A stretch of DNA of 64,000 nucleotides from Escherichia coli (lineage in GTDB: Bacteria; Pseudomonadota; Gammaproteobacteria; Enterobacterales; Enterobacteriaceae): NCBI RefSeq assembly GCF_003018255.1, contig NZ_CP027440.1; one strand, 5' to 3'. Positions 4,662-61,252 of the stretch are shown in pieces; position 1 is the stretch's first letter, and every line of letters begins with the position of its first letter. A model generated the notes under the pieces. The model ran no database searches, had not been told where the DNA came from, and saw only the letters and a program-made list of their open reading frames with translations. The translations under genes and the position numbers were made by a program.

Positions 4662-5618
4662 TTAAAACAGCGCCTTAAGTCGTTCCAGCACTTGCATGGC
4701 GCTGTAGTAATCCAGTCGGAACGTCTCGGTTCCCAGCGCATAAACCTGCTTGTTTTGTACTGCAGGCAGGTGCGCGAGCAGCGGATTGGCATAAATCGCA
4801 TCGGCATCTTTCTGATCACCGGCGAACAGGAATAGTGACTCGCCATTTAACCCTGCAGCCAGATTTTCCCCACCAAGCTGAATGATGTCATGGCGTTTAC
4901 CCTGGCTTTGGCTGGCATTTAACCCTGCGGGTAACTTCGCCAGCGTAAAGCCGAGTTGTTCCAGCATCTGCCCTTGTGCTGATTCCGGCGTCCAGAGATT
5001 GGCACTGTGTGCAGCGGCAGTATAGACAATGGCAGTGACCGGCTGCGGCGGTAATTTGATTTGCTCTTTCGCCGCCGCCAGTTGCTTATCAAACTGCGCA
5101 ATCCGCTCTGCCGCTTGTTTCTCATGCCCGGTAATTTCGCCAAGTTGCGTTAACAGCGCCTGCCAGCTTTTGTCGTCGTAATTGATGATTAATGTCGGGG
5201 CGATGGTGGAAAGCTGATCATACAGCGCCAGCGCCGAATCACCGCCGGTTGCGCTAATTAAAATCAGATCCGGCATTTGCGCGGCAACGGCTTCGGCGCT
5301 CGGTTCGCCGATATAGAGCCGTTGCAGTTTGCGTTCTTTCGCCACCTTGCTCCACTGGCGTAAAAAGCCCTGGTCATCCGCTACGCGGTTATTCGGCGTG
5401 GTCGCGCCGCTGGCGATCACCGGAGCATCAATCGCCAGCAGTGAGCCGGTCAGGGTGACGCTGGTGGAAACAATACGCTGCGGCTGGCTTTCTAGGGTAT
5501 GAGTGCCCCGGCTGTCAGTAATCTGACGCGGCCAGTCGGCAGCCTGAACTGCGGCTATTCCTGAAAGCAAAAGTCCTGTTAATAGAAGGGCGTTGCGGTA
5601 GAGCGGGGCGAGTCTCAC
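4662..5618 (-). CDS. fepB: Periplasmic ferric enterobactin binding protein
   Basis: 318-aa ORF with N-terminal signal peptide (..[10 protein letters not shown]); convergent with entS, divergent from entC. Confidence 0.93.
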
Positions 5619-5761
5619 AAGTCAGCTTCCTGTTATTAATGAAGTTAATGCTTCTCATTTTCATTGTAACCACAACCAGATGCAACCCCGAGTTGCAGAT
5701 TGCGTTACCTCAAGAGTTGACATAGTGCGCGTTTGCTTTTAGGTTAGCGACCGAAAATATA

Positions 5762-5782
5762 AATGATAATCATTATTAAAGC
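5762..5782. promoter_or_regulatory. Fur box in the divergent fepB / entCEBAH promoter region
   Basis: aaatGATAATCATTATtaaag contains the consensus core GATAATCATTAT exactly; ~25 nt upstream of the entC ATG. Confidence 0.7.
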
Positions 5783-5806
5783 CTTTATCATTTTGTGGAG
5801 GATGAT

Positions 5807-6982
<1,176 letters not shown>

Positions 6983-6991
6983 GGAGCGAGG

Positions 6992-8602
6992 ATGAGCATT
7001 CCATTTACCCGCTGGCCGGAAGAGTTTGCCCGTCGCTATCGGGAAAAAGGCTACTGGCAGGATTTGCCGCTGACCGACATTCTGACGCGACATGCTGCGA
7101 GTGACAGCATCGCGGTTATCGACGGCGAGCGGCAGTTGAGTTACCGGGAGCTGAATCAGGCGGCGGATAACCTCGCGTGTAGTTTACGCCGTCAGGGCAT
7201 TAAACCTGGTGAAACCGCGCTGGTACAACTGGGTAACGTCGCTGAACTTTACATTACCTTTTTCGCGCTGCTGAAACTGGGCGTTGCGCCGGTGCTGGCG
7301 CTGTTCAGCCATCAGCGTAGTGAACTGAACGCCTATGCCAGCCAGATTGAACCGGCGTTACTGATTGCCGATCGCCAACATGCGCTGTTTAGCGGGGATG
7401 ATTTTCTCAACACATTTGTTGCAGAGCATTCTTCCATTCGCGTGGTGCAACTGCACAACGACAGCGGTGAGCATAACTTGCAGGATGCGATTAACCATCC
7501 GGCTGGGGATTTTACTGCCACACCGTCACCTGCTGATGAAGTGGCCTATTTCCAGCTTTCCGGCGGCACCACCGGCACTCCGAAACTGATCCCGCGCACT
7601 CATAACGACTACTACTACAGCGTGCGTCGTAGCGTCGAGATTTGTCAGTTCACACAACAGACGCGCTACCTGTGCGCGATTCCGGCGGCTCATAACTACG
7701 CCATGAGTTCGCCGGGATCGTTGGGGGTATTTCTCGCTGGCGGCACTGTCGTTCTGGCTGCCGACCCCAGCGCCACGCTTTGCTTCCCATTGATTGAAAA
7801 ACATCAGGTCAACGTTACCGCGCTGGTGCCGCCCGCAGTCAGCCTGTGGTTGCAGGCACTGGCTGAAGGCGAAAGCCGGGCGCAGCTTGCCTCGCTGAAA
7901 CTGTTACAGGTCGGTGGTGCACGTCTTTCTGCCACGCTTGCGGCGCGTATTCCCGCAGAGATTGGCTGCCAGTTACAGCAGGTATTCGGCATGGCGGAAG
8001 GACTAGTGAACTACACCCGACTTGATGATAGCGCGGAGAAAATTATCCATACCCAGGGTTACCCAATGTGTCCGGACGATGAAGTGTGGGTTGCCGATGC
8101 CGAAGGAAATCCACTGCCGCAAGGGGAAGTTGGACGCCTGATGACCCGCGGTCCGTATACCTTCCGTGGCTATTACAAAAGCCCGCAGCACAATGCCAGC
8201 GCCTTTGATGCCAACGGTTTTTACTGTTCCGGCGATCTGATCTCTATTGATCCAGAGGGTTACATCACTGTGCAGGGGCGCGAGAAAGATCAGATCAACC
8301 GTGGCGGCGAGAAGATCGCTGCCGAAGAGATCGAAAACCTGCTGCTGCGCCATCCGGCGGTGATCTACGCCGCACTGGTGAGCATGGAAGATGAGCTGAT
8401 GGGCGAAAAAAGCTGTGCTTATCTGGTGGTAAAAGAGCCGCTGCGCGCGGTGCAGGTGCGTCGTTTCCTGCGTGAACAGGGTATTGCCGAATTTAAATTA
8501 CCGGATCGCGTGGAGTGTGTAGATTCACTTCCGCTGACGGCGGTCGGGAAAGTCGATAAAAAACAATTACGTCAGTGGCTGGCGTCACGCGCATCAGCCT
8601 GA
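6992..8602 (+). CDS. entE: 2,3-dihydroxybenzoate-AMP ligase
   Basis: 536-aa adenylate-forming enzyme; AMP-binding motif [10 protein letters not shown] present. Confidence 0.95.
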
Positions 8603-8615
8603 AGGAGAGAACACG

Positions 8616-9472
8616 ATGGCTATTCCAAAATTACAGGCTTACGCACTGCCGGAGTCTCACGATATTCCGCAGAATAAAGTCGACTGGGCCTTTGAACCGC
8701 AACGTGCCGCGTTGTTAATCCATGATATGCAGGACTATTTTGTCAGCTTCTGGGGCGAGAACTGCCCGATGATGGAGCAGGTGATCGCGAATATTGCGGC
8801 ACTACGCGACTACTGCAAACAGCACAATATCCCGGTTTATTACACCGCCCAGCCGAAAGAGCAGAGCGATGAAGATCGGGCGCTGTTGAATGATATGTGG
8901 GGGCCAGGCCTGACCCGTTCGCCGGAACAGCAAAAGGTGGTGGATCGCCTGACGCCAGATGCCGACGACACGGTGCTGGTGAAGTGGCGCTACAGCGCGT
9001 TTCATCGTTCCCCGCTGGAGCAAATGCTCAAAGAGAGTGGACGTAACCAGCTGATTATTACCGGGGTATATGCCCACATTGGCTGTATGACCACCGCAAC
9101 GGACGCATTTATGCGCGATATTAAACCGTTTATGGTGGCGGATGCGCTGGCCGATTTCAGCCGTGACGAGCATTTGATGTCGCTGAAATATGTGGCCGGA
9201 CGTTCTGGTCGGGTGGTGATGACCGAAGAATTGCTGCCAGCACCTATCCCCGCCAGCAAAGCGGCGCTGCGTGAGGTGATCCTGCCGTTGCTGGACGAGT
9301 CCGATGAACCGTTCGATGACGACAACCTGATCGACTACGGTCTGGATTCGGTGCGGATGATGGCGCTGGCGGCGCGCTGGCGCAAAGTGCATGGCGATAT
9401 CGACTTTGTCATGCTGGCGAAAAACCCGACCATCGACGCCTGGTGGAAGCTACTTTCCCGCGAGGTGAAATA

Positions 9473-13025: not shown

Positions 13026-13060
13026 TGTAGGCCGGATAAAGCGTTCACGCCGCATCCGGC
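13026..13060. repeat. REP (repetitive extragenic palindromic) element
   Basis: tgtaGGCCGGATAAAGCGTTCACGCCGCATCCGGCa in the cstA-ybdD spacer; matches the enterobacterial REP consensus GCCGGATGCGGCGTGAACGCnTTATCCGGCCTAC in reverse orientation. Confidence 0.75.
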
Positions 13061-13093
13061 ACTCTTTCAGCAACATGGTTAGCGGAGGCCAAG

Positions 13094-22702: not shown

Positions 22703-22826
22703 AAGCATTCTCTCCTTGTTTTTGCATGTATGCATAACAGCACATTATTGGTTATGAATCTATAATTTGCGAGGCTGATTTGATCTGAATTTGCTATTGA
22801 GCTGGAAAATAAATAAAAACCAGGCG

Positions 22827-22916
22827 CTACCAGCGTTGTTCAAGGTATAGCACTGCAGCAACAATAATTGCTGCTATGAATATATAAAATGCAGTGATAC
22901 CGAGAGCTTCGCTCAT
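22827..22916 (-). CDS. Candidate 29-aa small hydrophobic (single-TM) protein, unannotated
   Basis: ATG..TAG ORF translating to MSEALGITAFYIFIAAIIVAAVLYLEQRW; below the 60-aa track cut-off; weak SD; coordinates +/-1 nt; no homology check possible. Confidence 0.3.
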   Translation of the reverse strand: MSEALGITAFYIFIAAIIVAAVLYLEQRW

Positions 22917-23058
22917 ATGAGGTTCCGCAGATGAATAGCCAGTTCAGATTAGAATGCTGCGCTTAAGAGCAAAATGATAAATCTGGTTGATATTTGAGCG
23001 GAAAGAGGATGCGAGTGCATCCTCTGGGCAAAGCGAGTTATCGCTTGTGCAGATGGGA

Positions 23059-54122: not shown

Positions 54123-54605
54123 ATGAACAAGGTTGCTCAATATTACCGTGAACTGGTCGCGTCACTGAGCGAACGCCTGCGCAATGGCGAACGTGATATC
54201 GACGCACTGGTGGAACAGGCGCGCGAGCGCGTAATAAAAACAGGGGAGTTAACGCGAACCGAGGTCGATGAGCTGACGCGAGCTGTCAGACGTGACCTGG
54301 AAGAGTTCGCCATGAGCTATGAAGAGAGCCTGAAAGAAGAATCTGACAGCGTCTTTATGCGGGTGATTAAAGAAAGCTTGTGGCAGGAGCTGGCAGACAT
54401 CACCGATAAAACGCAGCTTGAATGGCGCGAAGTTTTCCAGGACCTCAATCATCACGGGGTTTATCACAGCGGAGAAGTGGTAGGGCTGGGAAATCTGGTC
54501 TGCGAGAAATGTCACTTCCATCTCCCGATCTATACACCGGAAGTGCTGACGCTATGCCCGAAATGTGGTCATGATCAGTTCCAGAGACGTCCGTTCGAGC
54601 CGTAA
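54123..54605 (+). CDS. ybeL: DUF1451 family protein with C-terminal zinc-ribbon-like CxxC pairs
   Basis: 160-aa ORF; CEKCH ... CPKCGH near the C-terminus. Confidence 0.9.
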   Translation: MNKVAQYYRELVASLSERLRNGERDIDALVEQARERVIKTGELTRTEVDELTRAVRRDLEEFAMSYEESLKEESDSVFMRVIKESLWQELADITDKTQLEWREVFQDLNHHGVYHSGEVVGLGNLVCEKCHFHLPIYTPEVLTLCPKCGHDQFQRRPFEP

Positions 54606-54649
54606 TGAAATGAGTGGTGCCGGATGGCGTGATGTCATCCGGTGAGTGA

Positions 54650-55585
54650 TTAAGCGTAAAATTTCAGACGATCAGCCAGTAAATCAACAAAGCCCTGACG
54701 ATCAACATCGACCATTACGGTGGCATTCGGTTTATTGCCAGTCAGATAATAATAATCAACAACCGTCATACCCTGGGTATATTTCCCTTGTGTTTCCACG
54801 CCAACCCAGCGCTCAACAGTGGTAAACAACTCCGGTTTCAACAGCCAGGCGATGGTGCATGGGTCATGCAGTGGTGCGCCGACAAAGCCCCATTTTTCGT
54901 CTTTATGATATTCGAGGAAGAAATCCAGCAGTTCGGCAACAATGGTTGAAACAGGGTTGCCAATCGCGCGGAAACGCTCAGTGTCTTCAACGTGGATTTG
55001 TGCTTTGTGAGTAACATCCAGACCGGCCATCACCACCGGAATTCCTGACTGGAAGACAATTTCTGCCGCTTCCGGGTCAACGTAAATATTAAATTCAGCC
55101 GCAGGCGTCCAGTTACCAAGCCCCATTGCGCCGCCCATAATCACGATACGGGCAATTTTGCTATGCAGTTCCGGGTGGCTATTGAGCAGCAAGGCAACGT
55201 TAGTTTGCGGTCCGGTTGAAACAATGGTGATAGGTTCCTCACTTTCACACAGCGTTTTCGCCATCAGCTCCACCGCCGTACAGTTTTGCGGTGCGAACGT
55301 CGGTTCCGGTAATGCCGGGCCGTCGAGACCGCTTTCGCCGTGCACATTGTCCGCAATAATCAAATTACGCATTAACGGTTTTACCGCGCCGCCTGCTACC
55401 GGAATATCGGTGCGATTAAGCAAGGTCAGCATACGCAGAACATTGCGTAAGGTTTTTTCTGGTGTCTGGTTTCCGGCGGAAGACGTAATTGCTTTGACAT
55501 CAAGCTCTGGTGAGGCGAGGGCAAGAACTATTGCGATAGCGTCGTCATGACCTGGGTCGCAATCTAACAGAATTGGCAGTGCCAT
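54650..55585 (-). CDS. rihA: Pyrimidine-specific ribonucleoside hydrolase
   Basis: 311-aa product from [19 protein letters not shown] (DxDxxxDD motif); track ORF extends 11 codons upstream. Confidence 0.93.
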
Positions 55586-59374: not shown

Positions 59375-61252
59375 ATGTCTGCATCTTCGGTTAAGCCGTT
59401 AAATGTTCAATTACCCGCAATAACCCTTATCCTTTTTGCGCTCTGTGTTGGGATATTTTGTTACCTCGCACAATGGATGAGTTATGAAGAAGTCGATCAA
59501 TCCGCACTTATCCATCTCGGTGCTAACGTTGCTTCTCTCACGTTGTCGGGTGAATCCTGGCGCTTATTGAGCAGTGTCTTTCTGCACAGCAGTGTTTCTC
59601 ATTTGCTGATGAATATGTTTGCACTCCTGGTGGTGGGGGGAGCGGTGGAACGTATTCTGGGGAAATGGCGACTCCTGATTATCTTGTTATTCTCCGGCAT
59701 CTTTGGTGGGCTGATCAGCGCCTGTTATGCGTTACGCGAAAGTGAGCAGATAGTCATCAGCGTTGGGGCATCCGGGGCAATTATGGGAATAGCGGGCGCT
59801 GCGATAGCAACACAGCTTTCTTCAGGTGCGGGTACACACCATAAAAACCAGCGGCGAGTATTTTCTCTGTTGGGTATGGTGGCGCTGACACTGTTGTATG
59901 GTGCCCGGCAAGCAGGAATAGATAACGCTTGCCACATTGGCGGCCTGATTGCGGGGGGCGCGTTGGGTTGGCTGAGTGCGCGTTTAGTTGGGCAAAATCG
60001 GCTCGTTACGGAAGGCGGGATTATTGTTGCGGTCACTCTTCTTCTGACCGGGACTATCTGGTTTGTGCAGCAGCAGATTGATGAATCAGTTTTACAGGTC
60101 AGGCAAAGCCTGCGTGAAGCGTTTTATCCGCAGGAGATTGAACAAGAGCGACGACAAAAAAAGCAGCAGTTAGTGGAGGAGCGCAACGCCCTCAGGGAAA
60201 CATTATCCGCTCCGGTAAGTCGTGAGCAGGCCAGTGGTGATTTACTCGCTGAGATTGCCGATATCCATGATATGGCGATCAGTCGGGATGGTAATACGTT
60301 GTATGCCGCAATTGAAAACACCAACAGCATTGTTGTTTTCGACCTCGGACAAAAGAAAATCCTGCATACCTTTACAGCGCCCATAGCGAAAGAAAAGTCA
60401 GTCAAACATTGTGGTGGCTGTAAAGATCAGGGCGTCAGATCGCTGGCATTAAGCCTGGATGAAAAGTTGATTTATGCGACTTCATTTGAAGCGAATGCAG
60501 TATCGGTCATTAACGTGGCGACGGGGGAGATTATTCAGTCGATTACCACCGGCGCCCATCCTGACAGCCTTATCCTCTCGCGTGATGGCACAAAAGCCTG
60601 GGTGATGAATCGCACCAGTAATAGTGTGTCAGCCATTGATCTGGTGACTTATCAGCATGTGACGGATATCCCGCTGGAGAAATACGACGGGACGGGGACG
60701 AGCGGTAAACCAGGCGCCTGGGTTATGGCACTTTCCCCGGATGAAAAAACATTGTTGATACCCGGTATGGTCAGAGGCGACATTGTACGCATCAATACCA
60801 TCACGCATCAGAAAGAAGACTTTCCCACAGGTGATGCGCGTGGTATCGTTTCTGCGATGGGATTCCGACCAAAAAATGGCGAGATTATTTTTGCCGATAG
60901 CCAGGGGATTTCACGTATAAGCGTAGGGGATCAACAAGCCAGCATTATGACGCAATGGTGTAGCAGGAGCGTTTATTCCGTTGAGGGTATTAGCCCGGAC
61001 GGTCAATATTTAGCGTTGGTGTCATATGGCCTGCAAGGTTATGTCATCCTGCTCAATATTAATGCCGGGCAGATTATTGGCGTTTATCCTGCCAGCTACG
61101 TTAATCACCTTCGTTTTTCAGCGGATGGTAGAAAGATATTTGTTATGGCGAAGAACAGGTTAATCCAAATGGACAGGACGCGCTCGCTTGATCCGCAGGC
61201 AATTATTCGGCATCCCCAATATGGCGATGTGGCTTGTATCCCTGAACCGTAA
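59375..61252 (+). CDS. Rhomboid-family intramembrane serine protease (seven predicted TM segments) fused to a C-terminal ~7-bladed YVTN-type beta-propeller
   Basis: 625-aa ORF with AAGGAAG SD ~10 nt upstream; rhomboid signatures WR (62-63), H71-x4-H76-x3-N80, GASGA with Ser133 (nt 59771-59773), H187 in CHIGGLIAGG (nt 59933-59935), seventh hydrophobic segment ~211-230; charged linker, then repeated ~40-aa blade-like segments. Confidence 0.85.
   Translation: MSASSVKPLNVQLPAITLILFALCVGIFCYLAQWMSYEEVDQSALIHLGANVASLTLSGESWRLLSSVFLHSSVSHLLMNMFALLVVGGAVERILGKWRLLIILLFSGIFGGLISACYALRESEQIVISVGASGAIMGIAGAAIATQLSSGAGTHHKNQRRVFSLLGMVALTLLYGARQAGIDNACHIGGLIAGGALGWLSARLVGQNRLVTEGGIIVAVTLLLTGTIWFVQQQIDESVLQVRQSLREAFYPQEIEQERRQKKQQLVEERNALRETLSAPVSREQASGDLLAEIADIHDMAISRDGNTLYAAIENTNSIVVFDLGQKKILHTFTAPIAKEKSVKHCGGCKDQGVRSLALSLDEKLIYATSFEANAVSVINVATGEIIQSITTGAHPDSLILSRDGTKAWVMNRTSNSVSAIDLVTYQHVTDIPLEKYDGTGTSGKPGAWVMALSPDEKTLLIPGMVRGDIVRINTITHQKEDFPTGDARGIVSAMGFRPKNGEIIFADSQGISRISVGDQQASIMTQWCSRSVYSVEGISPDGQYLALVSYGLQGYVILLNINAGQIIGVYPASYVNHLRFSADGRKIFVMAKNRLIQMDRTRSLDPQAIIRHPQYGDVACIPEP

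Follow-up and report, generated by a model that had tools for sequence, protein, structure and literature searches.

A probably never-occupied allele of the ybeL/rihA site in Escherichia coli

The ybeL/rihA junction and its hairpin

The window, i.e. the whole stretch of Escherichia coli DNA that was analysed, comprises 64,000 nucleotides. Within it, ybeL (positions 54123–54605, plus strand) codes for an intact zinc-ribbon DUF1451 protein of 160 residues, and rihA (54650–55585, minus strand) for an intact pyrimidine-specific ribonucleoside hydrolase of 311 residues. Both assignments are based on the list of open reading frames and on the RefSeq annotation of the collinear strain 104 and of CFT073. 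The YbeL protein is 100% identical to that of K-12; RihA, whose annotated ATG is at position 55585, is 98% identical. The stop codon of ybeL (TAA) occupies positions 54603–54605 and that of rihA (TTA on the plus strand) begins at 54650. The two genes are thus separated by a spacer of 44 nt (54606–54649) with the sequence TGAAATGAGTGGTGCCGGATGGCGTGATGTCATCCGGTGAGTGA, which probably represents an unoccupied insertion site of ancestral type. The convergent arrangement across 44 nt had been described in a sequence-only reading of the window, and it is confirmed by the limits of the reading frames and by the RefSeq coordinates of strain 104.

The same reading had pointed to a short inverted repeat in the spacer. 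This repeat is exact and consists of the 7-nt arms CCGGATG (54620–54626) and CATCCGG (54636–54642) with the loop core GTGAT; it belongs to a decayed REP-type palindrome at positions 54619–54643. The 64-kb window contains a single occurrence of the two arms combined, and 100 dinucleotide-preserving shuffles yielded none. Folding of the spacer as RNA yielded a hairpin with a 10-bp stem, including G-U pairs, and a 5-nt loop. The folding energy is -17.9 kcal/mol for the plus strand (z = -2.2) and -11 kcal/mol for the minus strand (z = -2.5). The hairpin is located 13 nt from the stop codon of ybeL and 6 nt from that of rihA. It is not an intrinsic (Rho-independent) terminator, as a U-tract is missing: no T-run follows it on either strand, and a terminator scan made no call. 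A search of the spacer against Rfam matched no family.

The core of a REP is present in the form of GCCGGATG at positions 54619–54626 and CATCCGG at 54636–54642, and the full CATCCGGC core is found in other genomes with an empty ybeL/rihA site. The location between two convergent stop codons is extragenic, as is typical of REPs, and the hairpin is presumably transcribed. Counted within the 64-kb window only, GCCGGATG occurs twice and CATCCGGC four times. One further REP lies at 13031–13061 and matches the REP inside the K-12 block described below. Canonical REPs carry a GTAG/CTAC tetranucleotide beside the palindrome, which is a recognition feature for RAYT proteins. The spacer of the window ends in ...CATCCGGTGAGTGA and contains no CTAC tail; orthologous spacers from Citrobacter end in ...TATCCGGCCTAC. 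Because of the missing tail, the hairpin was classified as REP-derived and not as a canonical REP. According to PMC12306157, REPs protect upstream mRNA from 3' exonucleases and can stall ribosomes near stop codons. By analogy, the hairpin would most likely act as a 3'-end structure on both convergent transcripts, those of ybeL and rihA.

The ybeQ–hscC block and its distribution in E. coli

In the K-12 strain MG1655, the stop codons of ybeL and rihA are 7,976 bp apart, and the interval contains ybeQ, ybeR, djlB, ybeT, ybeU, djlC, hscC and nothing else. The gene list that the sequence-only reading had given for K-12 is exact, and the comparison did not place ybeL next to rihA in this strain. Homology between the window and K-12 stops one to two bases past the ybeL stop codon and restarts at the rihA stop codon; approximately 42 nt of the spacer stand opposite the 7,976 bp of K-12. 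No 12-mer is shared between the spacer and any of the three island-bearing loci tested, which include K-12 and ST131. Residual fragments of the island genes, for which a search had been suggested, were not detected within the 64-kb window: all tblastn matches had E > 0.07, and the sole blastn match of the island to the window aligns a REP with a REP.

Part of the K-12 block is duplicated in tandem with a period of 2,797 bp, and the two copies have diverged to a nucleotide identity of 72–77%. The two units are ybeQ-ybeR-djlB and ybeT-ybeU-djlC, so that a Sel1/TPR gene, a DUF1266 gene and a J-domain gene are each present twice; the duplicated stretches correspond to positions 5528–6622 and 8325–9419 of the K-12 locus (L001). 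HscC is the third Hsp70 of E. coli, and its partners are the tail-anchored J-proteins DjlC and probably DjlB (PMC8215388). Its abundance is very low, its loss causes sensitivity to Cd2+, and its sporadic distribution has been put down to horizontal transfer (PMC8215388). The possibility that the missing block is an anti-phage defence system was also considered. A search of the block proteins against PADLOC-DB yielded two sub-threshold matches to the N-terminus of PtuA (E = 1e-4 and 5e-3), in which no stretch passed alone, and no match for the other six proteins. Lacking a credible match, this candidate was rejected.

The frequency of the block was determined in a sample of 5,426 complete E. 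coli genomes. The contiguous ybeL-rihA junction was found in 964 of them, and each of these junctions aligns to the window as a single collinear stretch with 97.4–99.9% identity. Island DNA is present in 4,449 genomes, 3,663 of which contain at least 80% of the island in one place; approximately 790 genomes possess shorter forms. Island DNA is absent altogether from 977 genomes. This number is close to the 964 empty junctions, and the empty-site strains therefore do not carry the block elsewhere. The proposal that the segment is strain-variable is borne out by these counts. With genomic islands the K-12 block shares this variable presence and an atypical composition, its GC content being 46.9% compared to 51–53% in the flanks. 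According to the annotation, its seven genes code for chaperones or repeat proteins only, it contains no integrase and it is not adjacent to a tRNA gene. A search for direct or inverted repeats at its ends was negative. The block thus lacks the mobility genes, the tRNA adjacency and the flanking repeats of classical mobile genomic islands.

Among well-known strains, the full block is present in K-12, O157:H7, 042 and SMS-3-5, and a short form in EC958 (ST131). CFT073 and IAI39 are empty and both contain the same type of 44-nt spacer. The ST131 type, which is the common short form, measures 5.17 kb; it has lost ybeR and djlB, and its ybeQ is a pseudogene. It lacks approximately 2.8 kb, which corresponds to roughly one duplication unit, and the endpoints are non-homologous; a 3' fragment of ybeQ and a 126-nt tail of djlB are retained. 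About 18% of E. coli, including major lineages of extraintestinal pathogens, are thus naturally devoid of HscC, DjlB and DjlC. For this poorly understood chaperone system, the empty-site strains can be regarded as natural knockouts.

The window differs from K-12 at three further sites. In the lipA-lipB interval, the gene of the LysR-type regulator YbeF is truncated (window positions 39953–39960): the window lacks 403 bp of the sequence of K-12 and strain 104, and the 5' part contains no ORF of at least 90 residues. In CFT073, ybeF is a pseudogene too, with a different breakpoint, and the window contains approximately 195 bp that are absent from CFT073; its nearest genomes (JNE23-011 and NC101-type) are collinear with it at ybeF. 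The gene of the zinc-dependent alcohol dehydrogenase YbdR, which measures 1.24 kb in K-12 and is located between uspG and yldA, is absent from positions 22720–22998. Here, 278 bp replace approximately 1.6 kb, and strains 104 and 042 are arranged likewise; ybdR is therefore a second K-12 gene that is missing from this genome. Finally, gltI and lnt are separated by an ORF of 625 residues (59375–61252, plus strand); at this location K-12 contains an IS5, and SMS-3-5 is empty. The ORF is annotated as a rhomboid-family intramembrane serine protease in 104, CFT073, 042 and ST131-type genomes.

Origin of the empty allele

In order to obtain outgroups, species-representative genomes were scanned for YbeL loci and the neighbouring genes were annotated by tblastn. 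E. albertii, E. fergusonii, E. marmotae, E. ruysiae and S. bongori are not represented at the ybeL/rihA locus in this survey. In approximately 30 outgroup species loci, ybeL is directly convergent on rihA; these empty loci belong to ten Citrobacter species, S. enterica subsp. arizonae, Pseudocitrobacter, Kluyvera, Enterobacter and Lelliottia. Most of their spacers consist of one or two REP-type palindromes with a GCCGG-type opening and are usually 35–160 nt long. In Citrobacter, Salmonella and Pseudocitrobacter, TGCCGGATG opens the spacer a few bases past the ybeL stop codon. In an alignment of 10 sequences from Escherichia, Citrobacter, Kluyvera and Enterobacter, GCCGG and TCCGG form invariant columns at the same position, and the non-palindromic bases of the spacer differ from genus to genus.

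In a record labelled E. coli SCPM-O-B-8794 (L007), the leuS gene is 4.6% diverged, a distance from E. coli equal to that of E. whittamii. Its empty spacer differs from that of the window by four substitutions and a 5-nt indel and contains a perfect 11-bp palindrome (CGCCGGATGAC/GTCATCCGGCG). Relative to this palindrome, T54618, G54627 and T54643 of the window are three stem-weakening changes, of which T54643 converts a G-C pair of the hairpin to G-U. Within E. coli, a base-by-base comparison of five empty spacers revealed distances of one to two substitutions. At position 54643, the other four spacers contain a C and the window a T. A 60-nt probe matched 579 empty-site genomes; each of the 579 deviates from the window in one or more bases, and T54643 occurs in none of them.

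About 42 nt of the spacer are missing from the island alleles, and their arrangement resembles that of the outgroups; the spacer is therefore not the product of a deletion. We consider it probable that the window carries an ancestral-type allele of the ybeL/rihA site that was never occupied, that its REP spacer is orthologous to those of the outgroups, and that the alleles are exchanged by recombination. The conserved REP spacer would then supply the polarity, with the empty state being ancestral and the block an insertion. The sequence-only reading had proposed that the segment was either never acquired or lost. The first option agrees with the outgroup-type REP spacer and with the absence of shared 12-mers; the second, in which the 44 nt are a deletion scar, does not. 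REPs are a dispersed family, and the likeness of motifs between the spacer and the outgroups could reflect this family instead of orthology.

The multi-copy nature of REPs, as illustrated by the elements at 13031–13061 of the window and between djlC and hscC of the island, is also the argument for a second scenario, in which a clean deletion of the block was followed by the insertion of a mobile REP into the new junction. However, this scenario requires two events, and the REP must have reproduced the position and orientation that it has in four other genera. Furthermore, E. coli and the 4.6%-diverged L007, the spacer of which has diverged in line with its flanks, must have arrived at an identical outcome. 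The palindrome of the window is decayed and devoid of a CTAC tail and is thus not fresh. We therefore regard a deletion with subsequent colonisation by a REP as very unlikely.

Even less likely is a de novo deletion, in which an ancestor bore ybeQ–hscC, illegitimate or site-specific recombination cut it out, and the 44 nt were left as a scar. Decay of the block does occur, since the ST131 types have lost approximately 2.8 kb and other partial forms exist, and further species of Escherichia carry the island. On the other hand, the island-bearing alleles tested contain nothing that corresponds to some 42 of the 44 nt, and the position and orientation of the spacer agree with those of the outgroup REP. 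The collinearity of the 964 empty junctions with the window, with spacers that differ by one to two substitutions, likewise argues against a scar, and the island contains neither repeats nor a recombinase that could mediate an excision. An assembly artefact, i.e. a block that is present in the genome and was collapsed or misjoined, can be practically dismissed, because the identical junction occurs in 964 complete genomes, including the independently finished CFT073 and IAI39, and because the 977 genomes without island DNA anywhere nearly equal the empty junctions in number.

Several other histories were considered and abandoned. The island could have been ancestral and the empty site a deletion, given that Salmonella has hscC; this is contradicted by the outgroups with empty REP spacers, and the Salmonella cassette is less conserved at the protein level than its flanks and has junctions that cannot be aligned with those of E. 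coli. The idea of two insertions that flank an ancestral REP was dropped because no 12-mer of the spacer occurs in the island and because the djlC-hscC interval contains another REP copy than the spacer palindrome. A scar formed by microhomology via GCCG(T)AATGAAAT near the ybeQ terminator was rejected as well, as this is a short chance match to which the remaining spacer lends no support.

The sequences of the left and right island junctions are common to K-12, ST131, Escherichia sp. E1V33 and E. whittamii. This points to one insertion event within the genus. One old insertion would have replaced the whole spacer in most Escherichia and left both stop codons intact. The inserted DNA would have been the low-GC cassette ybeQ-ybeR-djlB-ybeT-ybeU-djlC-hscC, without mobility genes. 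The K-12 island is 95–97% identical to other E. coli copies, 92% to that of E1V33 and 89% to that of E. whittamii. It diverges faster than the flanks, yet in step with them; neither allele has therefore moved recently between species.

At the same site, S. enterica subsp. enterica contains ybeQ, ybeR, djlB, ybeU, djlC and hscC plus an extra gene for a 412-residue protein, and no ybeT. An adjacency of ybeL and ybeQ has been stated for strain SL1344 (PMC3261920). The proteins of the Salmonella cassette are 46–83% identical to those of E. coli, compared to 91–95% for YbeL, RihA and GltL, and the junction DNA cannot be aligned with that of E. coli. The cassette of Salmonella thus goes back to an insertion of its own or to a very ancient one. 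The 412-residue gene, which lies between hscC and rihA, is unannotated and has no Pfam match. At the opposite end of ybeL, which directly adjoins leuS in E. coli, S. enterica subsp. enterica contains extra genes (L085/L086, 17741–21680); they code for a sigma-54 activator that carries a PrpR_N domain, for a KdgT transporter and for a dehydratase of the GD_AH type.

Exchange of alleles and use of the site by other cargo

By their established phylogroup labels, CFT073 and ST131 belong to B2, and IAI39 and SMS-3-5 to F; the empty and the occupied state coexist within both groups. Between IAI39 and SMS-3-5, the divergence is 0.54% in leuS, 1.9% in ybeL, 2.0% in rihA and 0.14% in gltL. The same trend, albeit weaker, is seen between CFT073 and ST131, with values of 0.27%, 1.0%, 1.1% and 0.7% for these genes. 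Such a local peak at ybeL and rihA is expected if a recombination tract replaces the whole allele from ybeL to rihA. These divergence profiles suggest that homologous recombination through the flanks carries either allele between backgrounds. Both alleles would have persisted since the insertion, recombination in the flanking core genes would swap them within E. coli, and the island state would hence not follow the phylogroup. Within 300 nt on either side, no flanking SNPs are linked to the island state, and the divergence of the window next to its own junction is only mildly raised. An old polymorphism that has undergone much recombination accounts for this pattern, and the history of the window lineage is not readable from the flanks: its empty allele may have been kept vertically or re-imported from another E. 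coli.

The ybeL-rihA interval contains unrelated cargo in other taxa. Chaperone-usher fimbrial operons were found in two Citrobacter, TPS/ShlB two-partner secretion pairs in Leclercia, Silvania, Klebsiella oxytoca and K. grimontii, and an Hcp gene plus a 266-residue protein without known function in Enterobacter quasihormaechei. Some loci contain secreted proteins of no known function downstream of ybeL, and in Escherichia sp. MOD1-EC7003 the interval is extended by 2.5 kb (the loci with other cargo downstream of ybeL are L016, L020, L034, L050, L055, L057, L071, L079 and L008). In many Kosakonia, Siccibacter and Citrobacter loci, rihA is absent and ybeL adjoins gltL. Given the varied cargo across genera, the ybeL/rihA site is an insertion hotspot. 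It is recurrently used without mobility genes, and its allele states are apparently swapped by flanking homologous recombination.

In MOD1-EC7003 (L008, 19095–19130), five tandem GCCGGAT heptamers with several REPs behind them lie between djlC and hscC; this expanded cluster occupies the position of the single REP of K-12.

The two states have a parallel in Salmonella, where subsp. enterica is occupied and subsp. arizonae empty, and the polymorphism spans Escherichia species. A more speculative and rather doubtful reading is that the site is a REP-marked, integrase-free hotspot at which the HscC-DjlB/C cassette forms a long-lived presence/absence polymorphism under balancing or niche-dependent selection. 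If this were true, the poorly understood third Hsp70 system would confer both a conditional cost and a benefit.

Comparison with known systems

Chromosomal integration hotspots between conserved core genes are an established concept of E. coli comparative genomics. The ybeL-rihA interval resembles them in that it holds unrelated cargo in different taxa. In contrast, it contains no integrase, tRNA gene or phage attachment site, and the REP palindrome is its sole landmark. With REP/BIME elements, the hairpin of the window shares the GCCGGATG...CATCCGG(C) core, the extragenic position at 3' ends and the absence of a U-tract. It differs from them in being short and decayed, in lacking the CTAC/GTAG tail and in carrying the three stem-weakening substitutions relative to L007. 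The ybeQ–hscC region of K-12 occupies the same chromosomal site between the stop codons of ybeL and rihA; it is absent from the window and replaces the REP spacer in K-12.

The closest counterparts of the junction are those of CFT073 (NC_004431) and IAI39 (NC_011750), which have the same gene order leuS-ybeL-rihA-gltLKJI and spacers that are one to two bases different from that of the window. The leuS gene of CFT073 is 1.3% diverged, however, which assigns the window to a different lineage, and even the nearest genomes of the window are only 98.8–99.4% identical over 24–50 kb. The empty configuration of ybeL and rihA has been contained in finished public genomes for many years, and the absence of the block is an ordinary accessory-gene polymorphism of an already known kind.
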